The notes under the pieces: model-generated | Seen by the model: the letters and a program-made list of their open reading frames with translations, nothing else | Told to the model about the DNA's origin: nothing | Database searches by the model: none | Position numbers and translations under genes: made by a program | Source of the DNA: Escherichia coli | Lineage (GTDB): Bacteria > Pseudomonadota > Gammaproteobacteria > Enterobacterales > Enterobacteriaceae | DNA length: 64,000 bases | Strand: one strand, 5' to 3' | Assembly: GCF_044324875.1 (NCBI RefSeq) | Contig: NZ_CP172187.1 | In this document: piece by piece, positions 6,310 through 19,100 of the stretch | How positions within the stretch are numbered: the stretch's first letter is position 1 | Layout: the number at the start of each line of letters is the position of its first letter

Positions 6310-6554
6310 GCTGCAGGCAGCCAGCTGTCGTCCTGCCAGATTTCTTCCAGCAGAGACAGGATACGTTCTTTATCCTTGTCGTTGCGGGCTCCTGTGACAG
6401 ATACAGACGGGGCGCTGCCCTGGTCTATACGCAGCCAGATTTCCGGGTAGTGTGGTTTCAGACGTCGTTCGATTTCATTCTGTAGCGCCTGAAGTGTGCC
6501 TGATTTGAGGTTTTTTGTGCTCTGGCGGTCGAAAAGAATTTCAATGCGGATCAT
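6306..6554 (-). CDS. impC: DinI-like small protein (ImpC-like), first gene of the operon
   Basis: Start chosen at internal ATG (MIRIEILFDR...) preceded by GGGAGA RBS; C-terminus ...ILSLLEEIWQDDSWL resembles DinI family. Confidence 0.7.
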   Translation of the reverse strand: MIRIEILFDRQSTKNLKSGTLQALQNEIERRLKPHYPEIWLRIDQGSAPSVSVTGARNDKDKERILSLLEEIWQDDSWLPAA

Positions 6555-6577
6555 GTTCTCATCTCCCTTTTCTTTTG

Positions 6578-6593
6578 CTGTATGTATATACAG
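6578..6593. promoter_or_regulatory. LexA box (CTGT-N8-ACAG): CTGTATGTATATACAG
   Basis: Consensus SOS box 24 bp upstream of the impC-like start codon. Confidence 0.8.
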
Positions 6594-6862
6594 TATTCTA
6601 ATAACTGAATCCACACACAGTCAAATGTCATTATTGTGACTAAAAAACGCTCAATTCTCTGAGGGTGTGGCTGTATGCCTGCTGTGGACTGCTGTGTCCA
6701 GCTTATCCACAGCATTTTGCGCACGGTTCTGTGAATAAAATACCTGGTTACCCAGGCCGTGCCGGCACGTTAACCGGGCTGCATCCAATGCAAGTGTGTC
6801 GCTGTCGCCGGCATCCTCACCAGGTCACTCAGCAGTCAGGGAGAAAAATGGCGGATGAAGTA

Positions 6863-7221
6863 TGACGGAGACGGTCGGGCAAGTGCCCGTTTCTTTTCCG
6901 ACAAAGGATGTCGCCGTGCTCCTCTTTTTACTGCGCCGGCTGACGCGGCGCGGCATAAACGCTGCCTGTGGTCAGTGTCCCGCGTCCGGCGGGCACGGGA
7001 CGGGCGCTTTTACCGCTCCCGGCTGGCGTCGGTGACAGTGTACGCCAGCCCGTCGCCCTTTTCTGATGAACGCCCTTCAAGCCGCTTTCGCGGCATAGCC
7101 TTGCCGTCAAAAAGACGACGGCTGCGGTATTCCACGGTCGGCCTGACCCGTTACCGGACGCGGTGAACAGCCCACAGGCAGCGGGGAACGGGCACCACAG
7201 GGGGGCCCTCCCGGTGCTCCT
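6863..7221 (+). repeat. leading-region repeat family A, copy 1 (~360 bp, GC-rich, contains long imperfect inverted repeat arms 6954-6989 / 7154-7184)
   Basis: Near-identical to 8168-8526; ends at the RBS of the downstream gene. Confidence 0.85.
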
Positions 7222-7236
7222 GTGAGGAGAATTCCC

Positions 7237-8163
7237 ATGCCAAACTGGTGCTCAAATCGTATGTATTTTTCTGGTGAACCAGCACAGATCGCTGAGATTA
7301 AACGACTGGCCAGCGGTGCAGTCACACCGCTTTATCGCCGCGCCACAGATGAAGGTATTCAGCTGTTTCTGGCCGGTAGTGCCGGACTTCTGCAGACCAC
7401 TGAAGATGTGCGGTTTGAACCATGCCCCGGACTGACGGCTGCCGGACGTGGTGTTGTATCGCCGGAGAATATCGCGTTCACCCGCTGGCTGACACACCTG
7501 CAGAACGGTGTGCTACTGGATGAAAAAAACTGCCTGATGCTGCATGAACTCTGGCTGCAGAGTGGTACTGGCCAGCGTCGCTGGGAAGGATTACCGGATG
7601 AGGTCAGGGAAAGCATCACCGTGCATTTCACCGCCAAAAGAGGTAACTGGTGTGGCTTCTGGAGTAACGAGGATGTATCGGTGTGGTGGAACCGTCTGTG
7701 TGACAATGTACTGCCGGAAAAAACCATGCCGTTTGACCTGCTGACGGTTCTGCCCACCCGCCTGGATGTTGAAGTGAATGGCTTTAACGGTGGTGTTCTG
7801 AACGGTGTTCCTTCTGCGTATCACTGGTATACGGAACAGTATGGCGTGAAGTGGCCTGTGGGGTATGAGGTGAATATCAGCAGTCAGGGAGACAACTTCA
7901 TTCAGGTTGATTTCGACACGCCGTGGTGTCAGCCGGAAAGCGACGTTATTGCAGAATTAAGCCGCCGTTTCAGTTGCACACTGGAGCACTGGTATGCCGA
8001 GCAGGGCTGCAATTTCTGTGGCTGGCAGCGATATGAGCGTGGAGAGCTTGTTGATGTCCTGTGGGGGGAATTGGAATGGTCTTCCCCGACAGATGACGAT
8101 GAGCTGCCGGAAGTCACCGGACCTGCGTGGATTGTCGACAAGGTGGCGCATTACGGTGGATGA
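7237..8163 (+). CDS. hypothetical Cys-rich leading-region protein (family not assigned)
   Basis: 308 aa from ATG preceded by GAGGAG RBS (MPNWCSNRMYF...); multiple Cys/Trp-rich motifs incl. CNFCGW. Confidence 0.7.
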   Translation: MPNWCSNRMYFSGEPAQIAEIKRLASGAVTPLYRRATDEGIQLFLAGSAGLLQTTEDVRFEPCPGLTAAGRGVVSPENIAFTRWLTHLQNGVLLDEKNCLMLHELWLQSGTGQRRWEGLPDEVRESITVHFTAKRGNWCGFWSNEDVSVWWNRLCDNVLPEKTMPFDLLTVLPTRLDVEVNGFNGGVLNGVPSAYHWYTEQYGVKWPVGYEVNISSQGDNFIQVDFDTPWCQPESDVIAELSRRFSCTLEHWYAEQGCNFCGWQRYERGELVDVLWGELEWSSPTDDDELPEVTGPAWIVDKVAHYGG

Positions 8164-8167
8164 ATTC

Positions 8168-8526
8168 TGACGGAGACGGGCGGGCAACCGCCCGTTTCTT
8201 TTCCGACAAAGGATGTCGCCGTGCTCCTCTTTTTACTGCGCCGGCTGACGCGGCGCGGCATAAACGCTGCCTGTGGTCAGTGTCCCGCGTCCGGCGGGCA
8301 CGGGACGGGCGCTTTTACCGCTCCCGGCTGGCACCGGTGACAGTGTACGCCAGCCCGTCGCCCTTTTCTGATGAACGCCCTTCAAGCCGCTTTCGCGGCA
8401 TAGCCTTGCCGTCAAAAAGACGACGGCTGCGGTATTCCACGGTCGGCCTGACCCGTTACCGGACGCGGTGAACAGCCCACAGGCAGCGGGGAACGGGCAC
8501 CACAGGGGTGCCCTCCCGGTGCCTTC
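8168..8526 (+). repeat. leading-region repeat family A, copy 2
   Basis: Near-identical to 6863-7221; ends at RBS of the methyltransferase gene. Confidence 0.85.
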
Positions 8527-8546
8527 TGTAAGAGAAGGAGGCTTTT

Positions 8547-9230
8547 ATGTCCCGTTTTATCCTGGGTGACTGCGTGCGAGTTATGGCCACGTTTCCGGAC
8601 AATGCTGTCGATTTCATCCTCACCGACCCGCCGTATCTCGTCGGTTTCCGTGACCGTTCCGGGCGCACCATTGCCGGTGACGTTAACGATGACTGGTTGC
8701 AACCTGCCAGCAATGAGATGTACCGCGTACTCAAAAAAGACGCTCTGTTGGTCAGCTTCTACGGCTGGAACCGTATTGACCGCTTTATGGCGGCCTGGAA
8801 ACGCGCCGGATTCAGCGTGGCAGGGCACCTCGTGTTCACCAAAAACTACACATCCAAATCTGCGTATGTCGCGTACCGCCACGAATGCGCCTACATCCTG
8901 GCAAAAGGCCGTCCACGTCTGCCACAAAACCCGCTGCCGGACGTGCTGGGCTGGAAATATTCGGGCAATCGTCATCACCCGACGGAAAAGCCTGTTACCA
9001 GCCTGCAACCGCTGATTGAGAGCTTCACACACCCGAACGCAATTGTGCTGGACCCGTTTGCAGGCAGCGGCTCAACCTGCGTTGCCGCCCTCCAGTCCGG
9101 ACGCCGGTATATCGGTATCGAGCTGCTTGAGCAGTATCACCGTGCCGGACAGCAACGACTGGCTGCCGTTCAACGGGCCATGCAGCAGGGGGCCGCGAAT
9201 GATGACTGGTTTATGCCGGAGGCTGCGTAA
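8547..9230 (+). CDS. orphan N6-adenine DNA methyltransferase (DPPY motif before FAGSGS motif; beta-class order)
   Basis: 227 aa; LTDPPY and DPFAGSGSTC motifs; AGGAGG RBS; no adjacent restriction endonuclease. Confidence 0.8.
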   Translation: MSRFILGDCVRVMATFPDNAVDFILTDPPYLVGFRDRSGRTIAGDVNDDWLQPASNEMYRVLKKDALLVSFYGWNRIDRFMAAWKRAGFSVAGHLVFTKNYTSKSAYVAYRHECAYILAKGRPRLPQNPLPDVLGWKYSGNRHHPTEKPVTSLQPLIESFTHPNAIVLDPFAGSGSTCVAALQSGRRYIGIELLEQYHRAGQQRLAAVQRAMQQGAANDDWFMPEAA

Positions 9231-9452
9231 ATGAACTATGCCGGACACGAAAAACTTCGCGCCGAAGTGGCGGAGGTGGCCAACACCATGTGTGACCTTC
9301 GGGCCAGGCTGAACGATATGGAGCATCGCTGTCGTTTTGATTCCGATGTGCTTGTTGAACGCCTGACACGCCAGACGCTGTATCGCGCCAATCGCCTGTT
9401 TATGGAGGCGTATACCGAAATTCTTGAACTGGATGCGTGCTTCAAAGATTAA
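9231..9452 (+). CDS. hypothetical small protein (73 aa)
   Basis: ATG overlaps upstream stop (TAAATG); within a co-directional gene block. Confidence 0.5.
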   Translation: MNYAGHEKLRAEVAEVANTMCDLRARLNDMEHRCRFDSDVLVERLTRQTLYRANRLFMEAYTEILELDACFKD

Positions 9453-9464
9453 GGGGGAGACGAA

Positions 9465-9899
9465 ATGTACGGAACATGCGAAACACTCTGCCGGGAGCTG
9501 GCAGCGCAGTATCCGGGAGACACGCCGCTGATGCTGGTTGTCTGGTCCCCGGAAGAGATTCAGGCACTGGCTGACGGTATGGAAATTTCTCTGACCGATC
9601 ATGAAATCAGGACCGTCCTGTCGCGCCTGGAGGACATCCCGGAAGACCAGCGGAGTGAATCCGGTATTTCTTCTGCCGCTGCGATGGAGATTATCAGCAA
9701 CGTGAGCGAAAACCGCCAGGTGACCGTCCCTGCTGAACTGCTGGCGTCCCTGATTCAGACCGCCGAACAGGCACTGTGGAAACGTGAATGGGCCGCCCGT
9801 GATAACGGCCTTGCCGTCCCGGAATGTGTTACCCGCCGTCAGGCAGTGATTAATCAGGCCCGCACCCTGCTGAAAAACAACACACACGAAAACAACTGA
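9465..9899 (+). CDS. hypothetical leading-region protein, paralog of the 11376-11798 product
   Basis: 144 aa; GGGGAGA RBS; shares MY..E..RE...VTVPA..L backbone with the 11376 ORF. Confidence 0.65.
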   Translation: MYGTCETLCRELAAQYPGDTPLMLVVWSPEEIQALADGMEISLTDHEIRTVLSRLEDIPEDQRSESGISSAAAMEIISNVSENRQVTVPAELLASLIQTAEQALWKREWAARDNGLAVPECVTRRQAVINQARTLLKNNTHENN

Positions 9900-10013
9900 T
9901 GTTATCGCCGCCTGCCCTCTGCCATTCAGAGACTGACCGGAACCGGGGCGGAACTGGTACTGTCCGGCAGTCAGTGGCAGTCGCTGCCGGTACTTCCGGC
10001 AGACGGAACGCAG

Positions 10014-10487
10014 GTGTCTTTCCCGTATGCCGGAGAATGGCTGACCGAAGACGAAATCAGGGCTGTTCTTGATGCGGTGCACGATGCGGTACGAAGCATC
10101 TGTTACCAGGTGGCAGAAGATACGCGGCGTATCCGTGCGGCGCTGACCACCACCGGTCAGACGTTGCTGACCCGCCAGACGCGCCGCTTTCGCCTGGTCG
10201 TGAAGGAAAGCGATCATCCCTGCTGGCTCGATGAAGATGACGAAAACCTGCCCGTAGTGCTCGATGTCATCGTGAACCGGGGCGCACGTTTTTCGGCAGT
10301 GGAAATGTACCTGGTCAGCGATTGTATTGAGCATATCCTGTCCAGTGGGCTGGCCTGCGATGTGCTGCGTATACCGGATGAACCGCCCCGCCGCTGGTTT
10401 GACCGTGGTGTTCTGCGGGAGGTGGTCCGGGAAGCCCGGACCGAAATCCGCAGCATGGCGGATGCCCTGGCAAAAATCCGTAAATGA
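10014..10487 (+). CDS. hypothetical protein; start uncertain (frame open back to the TGA at 9897-9899)
   Basis: 157 aa from GTG; same frame as the preceding ORF with only one intervening stop. Confidence 0.45.
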
Positions 10488-10638
10488 TGACACTGGCGGG
10501 GTAAATCCCCGCCTTTTTCCTGCCGGTCCCCGGACAGAGCACAAAGGAAGTCGCCGCCGGCTCCGCTTTACCCGGCCATGCGGGGCATGGCCTTGTGGAT
10601 TTTCAGTTATGTGGCCTCAGCGTCGTGTGCGGGCTGTG

Positions 10639-10858
10639 CCGTGCCTCCATCGTAGCCGGGCTTCTGCGGGCGGGTTGCAAGGTAAGGTGAACCGCTGCGG
10701 TCACCCGGTCCCTCCTTCCCGTCTGCCGTGATTTTCCGGTCGTTCACCCGCTCAGATTTCGCGGTCTCACCCTCCAACTCCCGCCAGCCGTGTGCGTCAG
10801 GCTGCGGCTTCCCTTGCGCCCTTGCAACCCTGCAGGCCCGGCAAAGATGGAGGCACGG
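10639..10858 (+). promoter_or_regulatory. long inverted repeat (arms ~40 nt at 10639-10682 and 10820-10858) able to form a large hairpin in ssDNA; Frpo/ssi-like candidate
   Basis: Arms read directly (CCGTGCCTCCATCGTAGCCGGGCTTCTGCGGGCGGGTTGCAAGG vs reverse complement of CCTTGCAACCCTGCAGGCCCGGCAAAGATGGAGGCACGG); just upstream of the klcA-like gene. Confidence 0.6.
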
Positions 10859-10903
10859 CACCGCCCGGTGTCGCGGAATATGTGAACAACGGAGGAAAAC
10901 ATC

Positions 10904-11329
10904 ATGCAATATGCGAAACCTGTCACTCTGAATGTTGAAGAGTGCGACCGTCTGTTTTTTCTGCCTTACCTGTTTGGCCAGGATTTTCTGTATGCCGAGG
11001 CATCTGTGTACGCGCTGGCGAAAAAAATGATGCCGGAATATGACGGCGGATTCTGGCACTTCATCCGCCTGCCGGACGGTGGCGGTTACATGATGCCGGA
11101 TGGCGACCGTTTTCATCTGGTCAACGGTGAAAACTGGTTTGACCGTACGGTCAGCGCCGATGCCGCAGGCATCATTGTGACTTCCCTTGTGATTAACCGT
11201 CAGTTGTGGCTGTACCACGACAGCGGTGATGCAGGACTGACTCACCTGTACAGGATGCGCGATGCGCAGTTGTGGAGCCACATCGAATTTCACCCCGAAT
11301 GCAATGCGATTTACGCGGCACTGGACTGA
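10904..11329 (+). CDS. klcA: KlcA/ArdB-family antirestriction-like protein
   Basis: 141 aa; GGAGG RBS; size and sequence character match KlcA/ArdB family from memory; followed by GGCGGCAATGCCGCC hairpin. Confidence 0.6.
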
Positions 11330-11986: not shown

Positions 11987-12178
11987 TACAGGGGCAGGCG
12001 GTGGAGGCCGCCTGTCAGCCCGCGCGAAAACCCCTGGCAGGCTGACGCCTGCCGGAAGGGAAGCGGGCCACGCTGGCGCGTCGCCCGTTACCCTTCCCGT
12101 CTGTGATGTGTCTGACTCAGGAGTGTTTCTTTCTTATGTTGCGGAACTGTTCCTGATGTTGTTGTTGTTCCTTTATCT

Positions 12179-12788
12179 GCTGCTCTGATTCTGACTACTG
12201 CAGTGTTGTTCTGTCTGCCGGGCGCACCTTCGGCTCCCGGCTGCCTGGCGGCATCCGGTCGTCAGGCCCGACTCCGACAGGCAGCTGCTGGCGCACCTGC
12301 CAGTCTCCGCCGAACCCGCTGGCGCGGCTTCGGGCTGCCGCTACGGTCCGATGCGTGAAAACCCCGGGCTTGCAGCGACCGTTCTGGTCGCGCCGCCTCT
12401 GTCGCGCCGTGGCCTGCGCTCCAGGCATCCCGGCAAAAAGACGCCGGGATGTAAGGCGCAACGCCGTTTCGCAAACCGCGCTTCACGTCGTTGCTGCGGG
12501 TCCCTGCTCATTGCCTGCCGGGTGCCACACACCCGTATGAGTCCCTGTCGCCGGGGGCATAGACAGCCACAACCTGCCGCACTGACTGTCCAGGGTAAAT
12601 GAACAGCCCACAAAATTTTTTACCCAAAACCCGGTAAAAAATTTTGCGTTCTGCCCAGGACAGGTGCGTCAGGCCGTGGCAGTGATGCCCCTTGCGGCGA
12701 AGGTTCTCAAACGGGTGAAGTTCATACCACAGGGAATACAGCAGCAGGTTCCCGCGAAACGTCAAAACCGCGGCTCCCGAAACTCAAC
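12179..12788 (+). repeat. leading-region repeat family B, copy 1 (~610 bp, GC-rich, internal palindromes); Frpo/ssi-like
   Basis: Three near-identical direct copies (12179-12788, 15536-16167, 23600-24229); contains hairpins such as CATCCCGGC-AAAAAGAC-GCCGGGATG. Confidence 0.85.
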
Positions 12789-13027
12789 GGGTGATGTTCT
12801 TTAAAAATCAGGATTTATTTCAGGCTCCGGCAATACGCATTTATGTGTTCTGTCAGTCATCCGGCTGGCAGGTAATGAGAACGCAGGAACAGAAGGAGGA
12901 AAACACCGGAGAACGTCAGACGCAGATATGAAAAAAGCAGGCCGGGGAGGACCTGCTTAATCCACACCGCAAAAACTGTTCGAGCAGTTTCTGCGGTTCC
13001 ATTCAACAGTCATAAGGAGTTTCATTT

Positions 13028-15281: not shown

Positions 15282-15460
15282 TGACACAGGGCTGGCGGGA
15301 GGATAAATGCCCGTCTGTCCGCGCCGGGAAAAGACCGCGCGCCGGTGGCGCTGAAAGGGGCCGCGCTCACGCGCCGCCCCTTTCATTACGCGGACGTTCT
15401 GATGGGGGCTTCTGTCTTTTCAGACCTGTCATTTGTCTGTTACTGATGATGTTGTTGTTC

Positions 15461-15525
15461 CTGCTACTGCTACTGCTACTGCTACTGCTACTGCTACTGC
15501 TACTGCTACTGCTACTGCTACTGCT
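15461..15525. repeat. hexanucleotide tandem repeat (CTGCTA)n, ~11 copies
   Basis: Read directly; absent at the equivalent position of repeat copies B1 and B3. Confidence 0.9.
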
Positions 15526-15535
15526 CTTCTTTTTC

Positions 15536-16167
15536 CTGCTGCTCTGATTCTGACTACTGCAGTGTTGTTCTGTCTGCCGGGCGCACCTTCGGCTCCCGGC
15601 TGCCTGGCGGCATCCGGTCGTCAGGCCCGACTCCGACAGGCAGCTGCTGGCGCACCTGCCAGTCTCCGCCGAACCCGCTGGCGCGGTTTCGGGCTGCCGC
15701 TACGGTCCGATGCGTGAAAACCCGGCTTGCAGCGACCGTTCCGGTCGCGCCGCCCCTGTCGCGCCGTGACCTGCGCTCCAGGCATCCCGGCAAAAAGACG
15801 CCGGGATGTAAGGCGCAACGCCGTTTCGCAAACCGCGCTTCACGTCGTTGCGGCGGGTCCCTGCCCGTTGTTGTGTCCGGTGCCATTCACCTGTTTAAGC
15901 CCCTGTCGCCGGGGGCTGATACAGCCACAACCTGCCGCACTGACTGTCCAGGGTAAATGAACAGCCCACAAAATTTTTTACCCAAAACCCGGTAAAAAAT
16001 TTTGCGTTCTGCCCAGGACAGGTGCGTCAGGCCGTGGCAGTGATGCCCCATGCGGCGAAGGTTCTCAAACAGGTGATGGTGAATACCGGAGGGAACAAAG
16101 AGCAGGTCCCCGCAAAACGTCAAAACCGCGGCTCCCGAAACTCAACAGATGATGGGGGCTGAAAACA
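15536..16167 (+). repeat. leading-region repeat family B, copy 2 (immediately upstream of ssb)
   Basis: Near-identical to copies at 12179 and 23600. Confidence 0.85.
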
Positions 16168-16187
16168 TCAACAGAAGGAGACACATC

Positions 16188-19100
16188 ATGGCAGTTCGTG
16201 GCATTAACAAGGTCATTCTTGTCGGTGTGCGCCGTTGAAGCGCGGTGTTTTATGGAGTGTTGCCTGAAAAGCAACATGGCTTAGTGGTATAGCCATTGCA
16301 TACTGTGGTTAGCCTTGCTTGGTAACAGGCTCGGAGATCCTGAAAAGGAGAGGTGAACATAGCATCCACAGAAAAGGGTGGTGAATATGGAAATCGTTAT
16401 AAGTATCACCATTCAATGCAAGATGTATATGGATAAACTGGGTTTGTTGAAGTCGAGATCTATGTGGGAAACAGGAAACCAATAACGCAGAACGATTGAA
16501 GCGTTATTCCCGTACTAGCACAAGAAATCCGTCCGACGTTGATTGTGACCACTCTAACGGGCCAGCTATTGATGAAATAGTTAAACGATCGAAAGACATC
16601 CTAAGTACATCGCATCTCCACACCGTGAAACTACGGGACTACCTAAACTGGATTTATACCCAGCATGGTAGCGGAGTCTCCATAGTACTCAAGGTCGGCC
16701 TGTAATGGGTTCCGGCAGTCCGCATTATACGGAAGCAGCAAAGGTATAAATCAACCGGAAGGAAGATGAAAGCCTCACAGTGCTGCGGGGAAGGGAGACA
16801 GTTGTTAGATACATCAATCTCTAAGAGGAGGGTTAGCCAATGCTGCCTGATGAACTTGAGAAAAGATTAGATGGAATTGAGGATGCTTCAAAAAAAGGGT
16901 ATCCAGTACGTAATCTATACAAAATTGCGTGTGAGCCCGGACTGTGGCTGCAAGCCTACGTGAATATACGGGCCAATGCAGGTGCACTGACTCAAGGTGT
17001 ATCAACAGATACCATTGATGGCTTTTCTATCGAAAGAGCAGAGAAGCTGGCAAAAACATTGCGGAGTAGAGAATACGTAGCGAAACCTGTACGCAGAGTT
17101 CAGATCCCAAAAAAGGACGGAAAAACCAGACCGCTGGGGATTCCAGGTGGAGACGATAAACTGGCGCAAGAAGTAGCAAGAATTATTCTGGAAAGGGTTT
17201 ATGAACCAGTATTCTCTGAACACTCTCATGGATTCAGACCAAAACGTTCGTGTGAAACTGCGCTCAGATCTATTCGTCCAGTCTGGAACGGAGTTAAATG
17301 GATCGTGGATGTTGATATCAAAGGTTTCTTTGACAATATCCCCCACAAACTATTGCTGAATACACTGGCAGAGAAAATTAAGGATAAGAATTTCCTGAAA
17401 TTAATCGAACAGTGGCTGAAGGCAGGATATGTGGACAATTGGAAATACCATCGCTCATATTCTGGCACGCCACAAGGTGGGATAATTTCTCCCTTACTGG
17501 CAAATATATACCTCGACAAACTGGACCGTTTTGTAGAACAGAATTTAATTCCTGCATATACAAGCGGTACAAAACGAAGAGCGAATCCAGATATGAACAG
17601 GCTGGCCCATAAGATTCATAAACTACGAAAGAAAGTAGACGGTATGGCAACTGATTCTGAATCAGAAAAAGAAGCCATAAAGAAAGAAATTGAACGACTG
17701 CTTGAAGAAAAACGTTCTATACCATCTCAGGTCATGAACGATCCAAACTTCAGGCGTATGTACTATGTTCGATATGCTGATGACTTCGTAATCGGTGTCA
17801 TCGGCTCGAAGAAAGATGCTGAACATATATCAAGACAGGTCAGAAACTTTATTACTACTTCACTGGGATTGGAAGTTAATGAAGCAAAGACCAGGATCCG
17901 CCATATCTCAGAAGGAGTTAATTTTTTAGGCTATGAAATCAGACAGGCAGATGCAAAGAAATTGCTGAAGCAGAAAATGCAAGGGCGGCACGCTCTCCGG
18001 AGATCCACCACAGGAATTGTGCAGCTCTTCGTTCCTGACAATATAGCCGCTAAATTTTGTCACCAAAAGAAATATGGCTGTTATGAGAATGTGAAGGCTG
18101 TACATCGTTCAAGTCTACAAAATCTCAGTGAAGCTGAAATTGTTCTGACTTTCAACGCGGAAATGCGCGGATTGGCGAACTACTACAGTCTGGCGCTGGA
18201 CATGAAATATAAATTATCAAAATTATATTTCATATGGCAAATAAGCCTTTTTAAGACCCTGGCGAATAAACGACGTAGTTCAGTGAATAAAGTCGCCAAA
18301 TCGCTACGGCAAAATAATGGAGATCTGGCTATTACCGTTCAGGCCAAAAATGGATCCCGAAAGATTGAGGTTTTCAAACTCAAACATGTCAATCGCAACC
18401 GAACAACGATTGTCGATACGGAACCGAGAACCGCACATATCACAACCCGCACAACAGAGATCATGCGTCGATTAGGGGCAAGGATCTGCGAGTATTGTGC
18501 GAAGACTGGGCGCTGCGAAGTACATCATGTCAGAAAGCTAAAAGACCTGAAGAAAGGTCGTAAGGCCGGATATAAACCCAGCTTGTGGCAACTAATGATG
18601 ATCGCACGCCGCCGGAAAACGATGATTTTGTGCGCAAGTTGCCACGACAAGTTACATAGCGGAAAACTACCCGATTTGAGACAGGAAAAGGGAAGAATAC
18701 TCCTGCAACCACCTGTCTCAAGCGGGGATTCTGCTAAATGAGTTTATCCCCAATAAGCTAGCAATGGAGAGCCGTATGCACTGAAAGGTGCACGTACGGT
18801 TCGGAGGGGGGGTAACGGTGATCTAACTCAAGATAAGCAGGACATATTCGCCATTTATCTTGAAAGACCACACGTACCCTACCCTACCGTCTGGGAAAAG
18901 ATCCGGAAGTCCGTTACATCCCAAACGGGGGCGCAGTGGCAAACCTGCAGGTGGCCACGTCAGAAAGCTGGCGCGACAAACAGACGGGGGAGATACGGGA
19001 GCAGACAGAATGGCATCGCGTGGTGCTGTTCGGCAAGCTCGCGGAAGTGGCTGGTGAGTATCTGCGCAAGGGCGCGCAGGTCTACATCGAAGGTCAGCTT

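Follow-up and report, generated by a model that had tools for sequence, protein, structure and literature searches.

The window, the whole 64,000-nt stretch of Escherichia coli DNA that was analysed, is IncF plasmid DNA and carries two near-identical repeats, here termed copies A and B, each standing directly ahead of a gene on the plus strand. Downstream of copy A lies a gene for a protein of 308 aa (7237-8163, +) that is annotated as DUF1281 in matching records. The protein contains 9 Cys and 16 Trp residues and shares 92.9% amino-acid identity with the DUF1281 protein of pESBL. Downstream of copy B lies the gene for an orphan DNA methylase of 227 aa (8547-9230, +), a homologue of M.EcoGIX with amino-acid identities of 92.5% to the pESBL protein and 93.0% to the F homologue. 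Between a gene X homologue and traM, the minus strand matches the oriT nick region (GTAGTGTGTGGTGCTTT, 26367-26383), which we take to be nic, with two mismatches to the F nic sequence; traJ and FinP follow at 27181-27290 on the plus strand. With the nick site on the minus strand near 26.37 kb, the minus strand is the one transferred and thus the template for the plus-strand leading-region genes, which include both genes described here. The distance from the nick is about 17.9 kb for copy B and about 19.2 kb for copy A.

Compared position by position, 6863-7217 and 8168-8522 differ at 6 of 355 nt (98.3% identity), and a repeat search of the window returned the direct repeat as 6850-7149 and 8155-8454 (97% identity, spacing 1305 nt). 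A sequence-only reading of this DNA had described near-identical copies of about 360 bp with imperfect arms of about 30 nt lying about 165 nt apart, and both statements are borne out: the arms (6960-6989 and 7154-7183 in copy A, 8265-8294 and 8459-8488 in copy B) are 30 nt long, 83% complementary and 164 nt apart. Its repeat edges at 6863 and 8168 hold as well, yet a fainter similarity between the copies sets in already at 6850/8155, some 13 nt earlier, where it overlaps the final DUF1281 codons. Past 7218/8523 the likeness is lost abruptly, and only a few bases further on stand the Shine-Dalgarno sequences, GAGGAG at 7225-7230 ahead of the ATG at 7237 for copy A and AAGGAGG at 8535-8541 ahead of the ATG at 8547 for copy B, the methylase ATG being 21 nt past the end of copy B. 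The copies do end at the ribosome-binding sites of leading-region genes, as had been proposed, and the two genes had been assigned correctly; the 'Cys-rich protein' of that reading is the DUF1281 protein, but its gene starts at the ATG at 7237 and not at the GTG at 7222. The upstream edge of each copy carries a terminator-like hairpin on the plus strand. In copy A, a terminator scan found the hairpin with its T-run (CGGGCAAGTGCCCG then TTTCTTTT, 6876-6897). In copy B, the hairpin (ACGGGCGG-GCAA-CCGCCCGT then TTCTTTT, 8176-8202) lies 13 nt past the DUF1281 stop codon; it was read from the sequence, the scan having reported the homologous position in copy A.

Copy A (6850-7221), predicted to function on the transferred minus strand, shares 96.6% identity over 383 nt with pESBL (L005:4390-4771). 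Copy B (8155-8526, likewise on the minus strand) is 96.9% identical over 386 nt to a pESBL segment (L005:4390-4775) that stops 8 nt before M.EcoGIX, and at the same position it shares 94.9% identity with F and 95.9% with ColIb-P9. Wen et al. (2025; PMC12672017) describe this pESBL hairpin 5' of M.EcoGIX as a "class 3" ssDNA promoter, a class later called ssp3, whose start was mapped by 5' RACE in agreement with the prediction and which is conserved in F; they also report six zygotically induced operons in pESBL and a strong zygotic induction of M.EcoGIX. A start within the hairpin and zygotic induction are reported for F as well. Protection by M.EcoGIX has further been published to vary with oriT orientation. 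Both copies are homologous in sequence to the pESBL hairpin, and copy B occupies the canonical class 3 site 5' of an M.EcoGIX-family methylase gene, with copy A in the same orientation before DUF1281.

The repeats had been taken for ssDNA promoters of the Frpo type. As a statement about mechanism this agrees with the published class 3 experiments on the orthologue, but as a statement about sequence family it does not hold. When copy A was compared with the window by blastn and nhmmer, the only matches were motifs of 13 and 18 nt at three class 1 copies (E = 0.86), so neither repeat shows significant similarity to the Frpo/ssi elements of class 1 (the 328-nt Frpo, or ssiD, and ssi1-3). The three class 1 copies, located in other parts of the window, are 84-94% matches to Frpo1 and Frpo2 of F; with these, one class 2 copy and the two class 3 copies, all three published promoter classes are present in the window. 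The shared 13-nt motif, TGAACAGCCCACA, is found on opposite arms in class 1 and class 3 and lacks conservation across the class 3 family, and we set it aside as coincidence or local gene conversion. Judged by sequence homology, the repeats are two copies of the published class 3 ssDNA promoter; the original observation was real, correctly interpreted and already known.

Folded as DNA, the transferred strand of both copies forms a large and stable stem-loop. The minus-strand fold of copy A reaches -104.1 kcal/mol, compared with -79.8 +/- 4.0 kcal/mol for shuffled sequences (z = -6.1; 0 of 100 shuffles as good), and that of copy B -110.1 kcal/mol. In the minimum-free-energy fold of copy A, the 3' arm of the main stem (6960-6995, -), which is the proposed non-template strand, pairs with the 5' arm (7144-7183, -), the proposed template strand. 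In the same register shifted by 1305 nt, the arms of copy B are 8265-8300 and 8449-8488 (-). An interior block, TATGCCGCGAAAGCGGCTTGAAGGGCG (7071-7097 in copy A, 8376-8402 in copy B, -), contains the mini-hairpin motif GCGAAAGC and a TTGA beside the predicted three-way junction. A small hairpin (7192-7217 and 8497-8522, -) sits in the interval from the main stem to the ribosome-binding site.

We aligned 24 homologues from at least nine enterobacterial genera, the divergent ones gathered via the methylase gene in species-representative genomes. Across these homologues 97.2% of the cells are paired, and 19 pairs show compensatory changes as against 10.6 +/- 1.6 after shuffling (0/500) and 2-8 in slid controls. 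A lack of conserved structure on covariation analysis had been named beforehand as the outcome that would speak against the proposal; the outcome was the opposite. In the main stem, compensatory changes occur in 11 of the 24 pairs. In the small hairpin they occur in two, pair 48:58 being AU in 12 and GC in 11 sequences and pair 49:57 UA in 16 and CG in 8. The interior block is identical in 24/24 homologues, and the interior helices consist of invariant columns, so that covariation speaks neither for nor against the three-way junction. The six differences between copies A and B all fall outside the main stem, the proposed -10 element and the invariant core.

Within the hairpin we propose, from its sequence and conservation, that [G/C]ACACT on the 3' arm (6979-6974 and 8284-8279) serves as the -10 element. 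It reads GACACT in copy A (6974-6979, -), with A-11 (6978) opposite C and T-7 (6974) opposite T, and equally in copy B 1305 nt further on (8279-8284, -). In the corresponding columns 277-282 of alignment A2, A-11 and T-7 are present in 24/24 sequences and A-9 in 23/24. A-11 and T-7 are mismatched in every clade, standing opposite C and T respectively in 24/24 homologues, and the flanking pairs covary; the conserved mismatches would hold these two bases unpaired. From the geometry of this element, the transcription starts are predicted at A7176 and A8481, both on the 5' arm; the equivalent position would be about 66 nt 5' of the M.EcoGIX ATG. Other candidates were rejected. The hexamer TA[AC]A[AC]T (alignment column 213), the best-conserved candidate in a consensus scan of the folded strand, belongs to the apical loop of one of the inner arms, a closed loop with no opposing template or downstream duplex; TATGCC/TTTATG just past the stem base is not conserved beyond the E. 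coli clade; and for the 5' arm as non-template strand, with transcription toward the loop, no hexamer resembling a -10 and having A as its second base is conserved.

A convincing -35 hexamer was not found 17 nt upstream of the proposed -10, where the site reads CGTCCC, and a scan of the folded strand of the 24 homologues for the consensus TTGACA-N17-TATAAT gave weak matches of 7/12 at best. A -35 contact might instead be made across the three-way junction, where TTGA, invariant in one arm, would stack on CC from the main stem to form TTGACC 18-19 nt upstream of the -10. We offer only tentatively the combined proposal that the -10 is 'pre-flipped' and the -35 contacted across the junction, and that in addition the second ssp3 copy has captured DUF1281; taken as a whole it is possible but rather doubtful.

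We posit, with a probability of roughly 0.85, that the repeats are autonomous expression cassettes, each of them active during conjugation and solely on the transferred strand in its single-stranded state. The relaxase would nick the minus strand near 26.37 kb, and the strand would enter the recipient with its 5' end leading. For as long as the strand stays single-stranded, each repeat would fold into an imperfect main stem of 36-40 bp that opens into two inner arms at the predicted three-way junction. The stem would be read as a promoter by host sigma-70 RNA polymerase, which would transcribe outward along the 5' arm, yielding a leader of about 60 nt followed by DUF1281 (copy A) or the M.EcoGIX-type methylase (copy B). 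Synthesis of the complementary strand would part the arms by about 190 bp and destroy the promoter, so that expression would be a short pulse. The terminator-like hairpin at the upstream edge may shield each repeat from incoming transcription. The activity of both copies is carried over by analogy from the 97%-identical orthologue, and copy A is presumably equal to copy B in this respect.

An alternative that we consider unlikely, albeit the strongest of those discussed here, is that the hairpins serve chiefly as signals for single-strand initiation (ssi), at which RNA polymerase lays down short primer RNA for complementary-strand synthesis, gene expression being incidental. The GCGAAAGC mini-hairpin, which is invariant, and the conserved interior do resemble features of phage ssDNA origins. 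Frpo was moreover first described as a priming signal, and class 1 transcripts have been published to prime conversion in vivo. Against a role confined to priming, each copy stops exactly at a ribosome-binding site followed by a gene, and the orthologue gives strong zygotic induction of M.EcoGIX according to Wen et al. (PMC12672017). A preprint (bioRxiv 10.64898/2026.01.09.698686) attributes priming to ssp1 and a replication roadblock to ssp2, and employs ssp3 solely as a promoter lacking roadblock activity. The priming and promoter roles are not mutually exclusive.

The expression-cassette reading applies to copy A at a site where pESBL has no copy. There, copy A has replaced a stretch of 103 bp that in pESBL adjoins DUF1281 on its 5' side. 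Its left edge retains about 13 nt of the DUF1281 3' end and a 19-nt DUF1281 fragment, and because of these remnants we infer that copy A arose by duplication. The same remnants would also fit a neutral by-product of recombination, in which case DUF1281 would be expressed by other means and the repeats would matter only as a substrate for its deletion; in line with this, only 365 PLSDB records contain the junction that places a second copy before the DUF1281 gene, and Frpo repeats are published substrates for the gain and loss of modules. We nevertheless regard a mere by-product as improbable, given that copy A is set precisely at the ribosome-binding site in place of the pESBL segment and has kept every invariant position. 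In addition, divergent ssp3-like elements also precede DUF1281 in plasmids of Citrobacter freundii and C. werkmanii, and the arrangement thus recurs. If copy A does act as a cassette, a minority of plasmids, this one among them, would have captured DUF1281 as a further gene to be expressed from the single strand as it arrives. DUF1281 could then be an unrecognised establishment or anti-defence factor, and the two direct repeats could form a switch that deletes its gene by recombination.

The conserved structure could in principle act in RNA, with the repeat serving as a 5' leader or attenuator behind a double-stranded promoter; the hairpin beside the ribosome-binding site and the small leader hairpin both show covariation and would also be present in an mRNA started upstream. 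This seems very unlikely, as the fold belongs specifically to the minus strand and the mRNA would be the plus strand. The alignment contains 157 G.T cells but 9 A.C cells, the minus-strand core is the more stable one in 24/24 homologues (mean margin 5.75 kcal/mol), and the consensus fold reaches -47.5 kcal/mol on the minus strand versus -20.0 kcal/mol on the plus strand. The terminator-like hairpins at the upstream edges likewise argue against a transcript arriving from upstream. On the plus strand between 6400 and 11000, a promoter scan detected nothing resembling a double-stranded sigma-70 promoter, and Rfam at gathering thresholds gave no match in 6863-8526 among 7 hits in the whole window. 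Hardly any credence can be given to the repeat as the gene of a 'hypothetical protein' of about 103 aa (6855-7166, with an equivalent frame in copy B), as which the ORF is annotated in thousands of records: the frame is intact only in the near-identical E. coli clade, indels of 1-2 nt in divergent homologues leave pieces of 67-83 aa in other frames, the opposite strand has equally long stop-free stretches, as expected at 66% G+C, and conservation tracks base pairs and not codons, so that we rejected a protein-coding reading for want of a conserved reading frame.

Promoters of this kind determine which plasmid genes run during the first minutes that a resistance plasmid spends in a new cell. 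These early genes include anti-restriction and SOS-inhibition functions, and they decide plasmid establishment. The class 3 element is routinely mis-annotated as a protein in plasmid records but can be recognised by its invariant core together with the covariation-supported stem. The class 3 copy before DUF1281 suggests that promoter cassettes shuffle between genes, and it makes DUF1281 a candidate for a gene of early establishment.

Single-strand origins (sso) of rolling-circle plasmids and the complementary-strand origins of filamentous phages follow a related logic, in that folded ssDNA presents promoter-like -35 and -10 elements to host RNA polymerase. Their output, however, is only a primer for DNA synthesis, whereas the class 3 elements described here would yield mRNA for the adjacent gene. 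The same principle of a long imperfect hairpin on the transferred strand underlies class 1, comprising Frpo1/Frpo2 (ssiD) of F and ssi1-3 of ColIb-P9 (Bates et al., 1999; Couturier et al., 2023, PMC9849209). Like the repeats described here, class 1 elements occur in the leading region as dispersed direct repeats just 5' of establishment genes, and like class 3 they are active only before complementary-strand synthesis. The two classes differ in that class 1 has an A/T-rich apex and class 3 a branched interior with 66% G+C, and only the motifs of 13 and 18 nt are common to both.

Class 2 (ssp2, termed 'Frpo3' in bioRxiv 10.1101/2025.04.03.647016), found 5' of klcA/ardB and ardA, is similar to class 3 in size and layout, and the copy in the window (10630-10867) has 32-nt arms 174 nt apart. 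The 3' arm carries a -10-like TAnnnT at a distance of 14-19 nt from the stem base. With class 3 it shares the box CGGCGAC(A/T)TCCTTTGT at the 3' end on the transferred strand, the sequences being otherwise unrelated. The two classes also differ in their reported effect on complementary-strand synthesis, which ssp2 blocks and ssp3 does not (bioRxiv 10.64898/2026.01.09.698686). In other genera, a class 2-like element precedes the methylase. Most alike are the class 3 elements (ssp3) of pESBL and F themselves (Wen et al., NAR 2025, PMC12672017; bioRxiv 10.64898/2026.01.09.698686), with identities of 96.6-96.9% to pESBL and 94-95% to F. They, too, are large GC-rich hairpins on the transferred strand of the leading region, and copy B is placed and oriented with respect to the methylase gene just as they are. 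The difference lies in number: pESBL, ColIb-P9 and F carry one class 3 copy each, whereas this plasmid carries two, the extra one being copy A before DUF1281.

The repeat pair is real, and both the kind of element it represents and its methylase-proximal copy have already been published; the additional copy represents a variant arrangement and is modestly interesting. A repeat search paired 6850-7149 with 8155-8454 as a direct repeat of 97% identity, and a base-by-base comparison of 6863-7217 (copy A) with 8168-8522 (copy B) showed differences at 6 of 355 positions, the likeness stopping at 7218/8523. Each copy holds 30-nt arms, 83% complementary and 164 nt apart, in line with the ~30-nt imperfect arms about 165 nt apart described in the sequence-only reading. 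In copy A they lengthen to 6960-6995 / 7144-7183 in a DNA fold, and its minus strand reaches -104.1 kcal/mol vs -79.8 ± 4.0 in shuffles (z = -6.1). The repeats had also been said to end at ribosome binding sites, and Shine-Dalgarno-type sequences indeed start 4 nt past the end of copy A (GAGGAG, 7225-7230; ATG at 7237) and 9 nt past that of copy B (AAGGAGG, 8535-8541; ATG at 8547). The gene order held as well, with a DUF1281 protein (308 aa, 9 Cys and 16 Trp) as the Cys-rich product after copy A and a 227-aa DNA methylase after copy B.

Wen et al. (NAR 2025, PMC12672017) profiled the transcription of pESBL, an IncI1 plasmid, in early transconjugants and found six operons to be induced, each with a large transferred-strand hairpin at its 5' side. 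The hairpins fall in three classes, which are as follows: class 1 (Frpo/ssi1-3), class 2 (5' of klcA and ardA) and class 3 (5' of M.EcoGIX); all six starts were mapped by 5' RACE, and conservation of classes 2 and 3 in F was noted. The classes were later renamed ssp1, ssp2 and ssp3, and ssp3 was employed as a promoter with a strength equal to that of ssp2 (2026 preprint, 10.64898/2026.01.09.698686). Against the pESBL stretch ending 8 nt ahead of M.EcoGIX, copies A and B show 96.6-96.9% identity; the values are 94-95% for the copy in F and ~96% for that in ColIb-P9, and in all three plasmids ssp3 lies directly 5' of the methylase gene. The window methylase is 92.5% identical to M.EcoGIX, published as an ssDNA-specific anti-restriction methylase whose protection varies with oriT orientation. 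With element, site and methylase all corresponding, copy B is orthologous to the class 3 promoter of pESBL. The ssDNA-promoter mechanism proposed earlier was right, the pESBL/F orthologue of copy B having been published as such. At 90-100% identity, ssp3 occurs in at least 5000 PLSDB records, the majority being conjugative plasmids from Escherichia, Salmonella, Klebsiella and Shigella.

The window is from an IncF-type conjugative plasmid, its closest overall relatives being pEK499-type IncFII/FIA plasmids. An Rfam search of the window matched the traJ 5' UTR and FinP (27181-27290), sok (22997-23173) and antisense RNAs of traI and traG. Searching with the nic consensus gave a minus-strand match (GTAGTGTGTGGTGCTTT, 26367-26383) to the nick region of F/R100, placed between traM and the gene X homologue. 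This identifies the minus strand as the one transferred, its 5' end entering the recipient first. Every gene of the leading region (~26.4 kb down to ~6.6 kb) is encoded on the plus strand and so has the transferred strand as template. A perfect 27-nt inverted repeat with a 2-nt gap (25474-25529), between a DUF932 gene and the convergent gene X (SLT) homologue, is probably a bidirectional terminator.

To reach divergent ssp3 copies, 45 loci of species-representative genomes were retrieved with the methylase protein as query. Class 3-like elements were found 5' of the methylase in Citrobacter, Raoultella, Erwinia, Entomohabitans, Enterobacter, Klebsiella grimontii, Hafnia, Edwardsiella and Buttiauxella. 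In the consensus fold (RNAalifold) of 24 homologues, aligned in transferred-strand orientation, the main stem carries a predicted three-way junction from which two inner arms extend, and a small hairpin separates the stem from the RBS; 97.2% of cells are paired. Compensatory changes affect 19 pairs, vs 10.6 ± 1.6 in shuffles (0/500) and 2-8 in slid controls, including 11 of the 24 main-stem pairs (e.g., pair 78:287, which is UA, GC and CG in 8 sequences each). Covariation, which the sequence-only reading had named as a check, thus speaks for a conserved structure; the interior helices are nearly invariant, and covariation is therefore uninformative on them. Action as an RNA leader is disfavored, as the paired positions hold 157 G.T cells vs 9 A.C cells, the minus-strand core is stabler than the plus strand in 24/24 homologues (mean 5.75 kcal/mol), and the consensus fold reaches -47.5 kcal/mol on the minus strand vs -20.0 on the plus strand. 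By these counts and predicted energies the ssp3 fold is specific to the transferred strand, which argues for action as DNA on that strand.

The hexamer [G/C]ACACT occurs 14 nt from the stem base on the transferred strand's 3' arm (copy A, 6979-6974; copy B, 8284-8279). Its position-2 A and position-6 T are shared by 24/24 homologues, and its position-4 A by 23/24. The position-2 A always faces a non-complementary base (A.C; A.G in Hafnia), as does the position-6 T (T.T; T.C in one sequence), and the pairs beside these mismatches covary among three clades. Sigma-70 flips exactly two bases out of the helix, A-11 and T-7. As the invariant mismatched A and T would be these two bases, we propose that [G/C]ACACT is a -10 element kept pre-melted. 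The 3' arm would serve as non-template strand, and polymerase would run from the loop to the stem base, reading the 5' arm as template. The predicted starts are A7176 (copy A) and A8481 (copy B), each after C, which would give leaders of 61 and 66 nt. In the duplex, the template at the proposed -10 site faces TGAACA, with G at -11, so that the promoter would vanish in double-stranded form; a promoter scan of duplex 6400-11000 found none on the plus strand. The sole sigma-70-like duplex promoter there, TTGACT-18-TAGAAT (6595-6624, minus strand), faces left toward dinI-umuDC-like genes, away from the leading-region cassettes. Of the -35/-10-like elements anticipated in the folded strand, the -10-like hexamer is thus conserved, whereas a consensus scan of class 3 found no convincing -35. 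Speculatively, an invariant inner-arm TTGA stacked on CC of the main stem could form TTGACC, 18-19 nt upstream of the -10.

Plus-strand terminator-like hairpins with T-runs stand at the start of copy A (6876-6897, terminator scan) and copy B (8176-8202, read from the sequence, 13 nt past the DUF1281 stop codon), and might shield each cassette from transcription arriving from upstream. A 27-nt block of the transferred strand, TATGCCGCGAAAGCGGCTTGAAGGGCG (7071-7097 in copy A), is invariant in 24/24 homologues and contains GCGAAAGC, a motif known for very stable DNA mini-hairpins. Across thousands of plasmid records, automatic annotation calls a ~103-aa "hypothetical protein" inside ssp3 (6855-7166 and the equivalent frame of copy B; 20006-20317 and 21311-21622 in retrieved locus L001). 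This call is very probably spurious, as 1-2-nt indels break the unconserved frame in divergent homologues and the other strand has equally long open stretches at 66% G+C.

pESBL, ColIb-P9 and F have one class 3 copy each. Copy A, both in the window and in pCP55-141k (an IncK2/Z plasmid), takes the place of 103 bp found directly 5' of DUF1281 in pESBL. At the left edge of copy A, the final ~13 nt of a DUF1281 gene persist (GGATGAAGTATGA, as in F), together with a 19-nt DUF1281 fragment (6829-6847, similar to 7877-7895); copy A therefore arose by duplication of the segment joining the DUF1281 end to ssp3. The ssp3-DUF1281 junction is present in 365 PLSDB records. Citrobacter freundii and C. werkmanii likewise have divergent ssp3-like elements ahead of DUF1281 (N-terminal MPNWC...), and a second upstream ssp3-like copy is present at several other retrieved loci; the capture of DUF1281 by class 3 is therefore recurrent. 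Copy A keeps every invariant ssp3 position, and we consider it probable (roughly 0.7) that it is active as a promoter. As direct repeats, the copies would render DUF1281 deletable via homologous recombination, as already described for Frpo repeats. In F (locus L002, 1650-1785) the DUF1281 3' end alone is kept directly upstream of the single ssp3, and F thus has a truncated remnant.

Promoter cassettes appear to have been swapped between genes. In Klebsiella pneumoniae ATCC 13883, Yersinia pestis, Salmonella arizonae, Lelliottia, Cedecea, Pantoea and others (L009-L012, L014-L017, L021-L023, L046, L047), a weak class 2-like element, not class 3, lies ~270 nt 5' of the methylase; these methylases are 81-91% identical (68% in L046). 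Enterobacterial leading-region sequence, including near-identical ssp3, was also found in assemblies labelled as Gram-positive or metagenome-assembled genomes (Streptomyces, L016, L030; Collinsella, L006; Oscillospiraceae, L007, L031, L049), most likely through contamination or mis-binning.

All three published classes are present in the window, with six elements in total. The label "Frpo type" is apt as to mechanism but not as to sequence family: copy A shares nothing beyond 13- and 18-nt motifs with the true Frpo copies of the window, and by this comparison copies A and B are outside the Frpo family. The three Frpo copies lie in a ~650-bp repeat (about 12163-12811, 15522-16169 and 23583-24232; 84-94% identity to F Frpo2 and Frpo1), whose initial ~200 bp matches IncI1 plasmids instead, so that the unit looks composite. 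Tandem 12-nt units (CTGCTACTGCTA...) directly precede the second Frpo copy (15437-15559), and a shorter, degenerate run lies upstream of the first (12147-12194). A group II intron separates the second copy from ssb (ltrA reverse transcriptase/maturase ORF, 16840-18741; Rfam Intron_gpII, 18767-18887), as in pEK499; early ssDNA-promoter-driven ssb expression would require read-through and intron splicing.

The class 2 hairpin (10540-10903, arms 10630-10661 / 10836-10867) precedes a klcA/ardB-type antirestriction gene (10904-11329) and is 90-91% identical to the copies in F, pESBL and ColIb-P9, each of which has a second copy 5' of ardA. Classes 3 and 2, otherwise unrelated, have in common a plus-strand box, ACAAAGGA(T/A)GTCGCCG (6901-6917, 8206-8222, 10541-10557), which follows the upstream terminator and precedes the main hairpin; metagenomic candidates in the list of Samuel et al. 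contain the box too. Comparable to the class 3 -10, class 2 of the window carries TACGAT (TAnnnT type) on the 3' arm, 19 nt from the base, and the candidates of Samuel et al. carry TAAGAT, TACAGT and TAAGGT on that arm, which supports the same promoter geometry for class 3.
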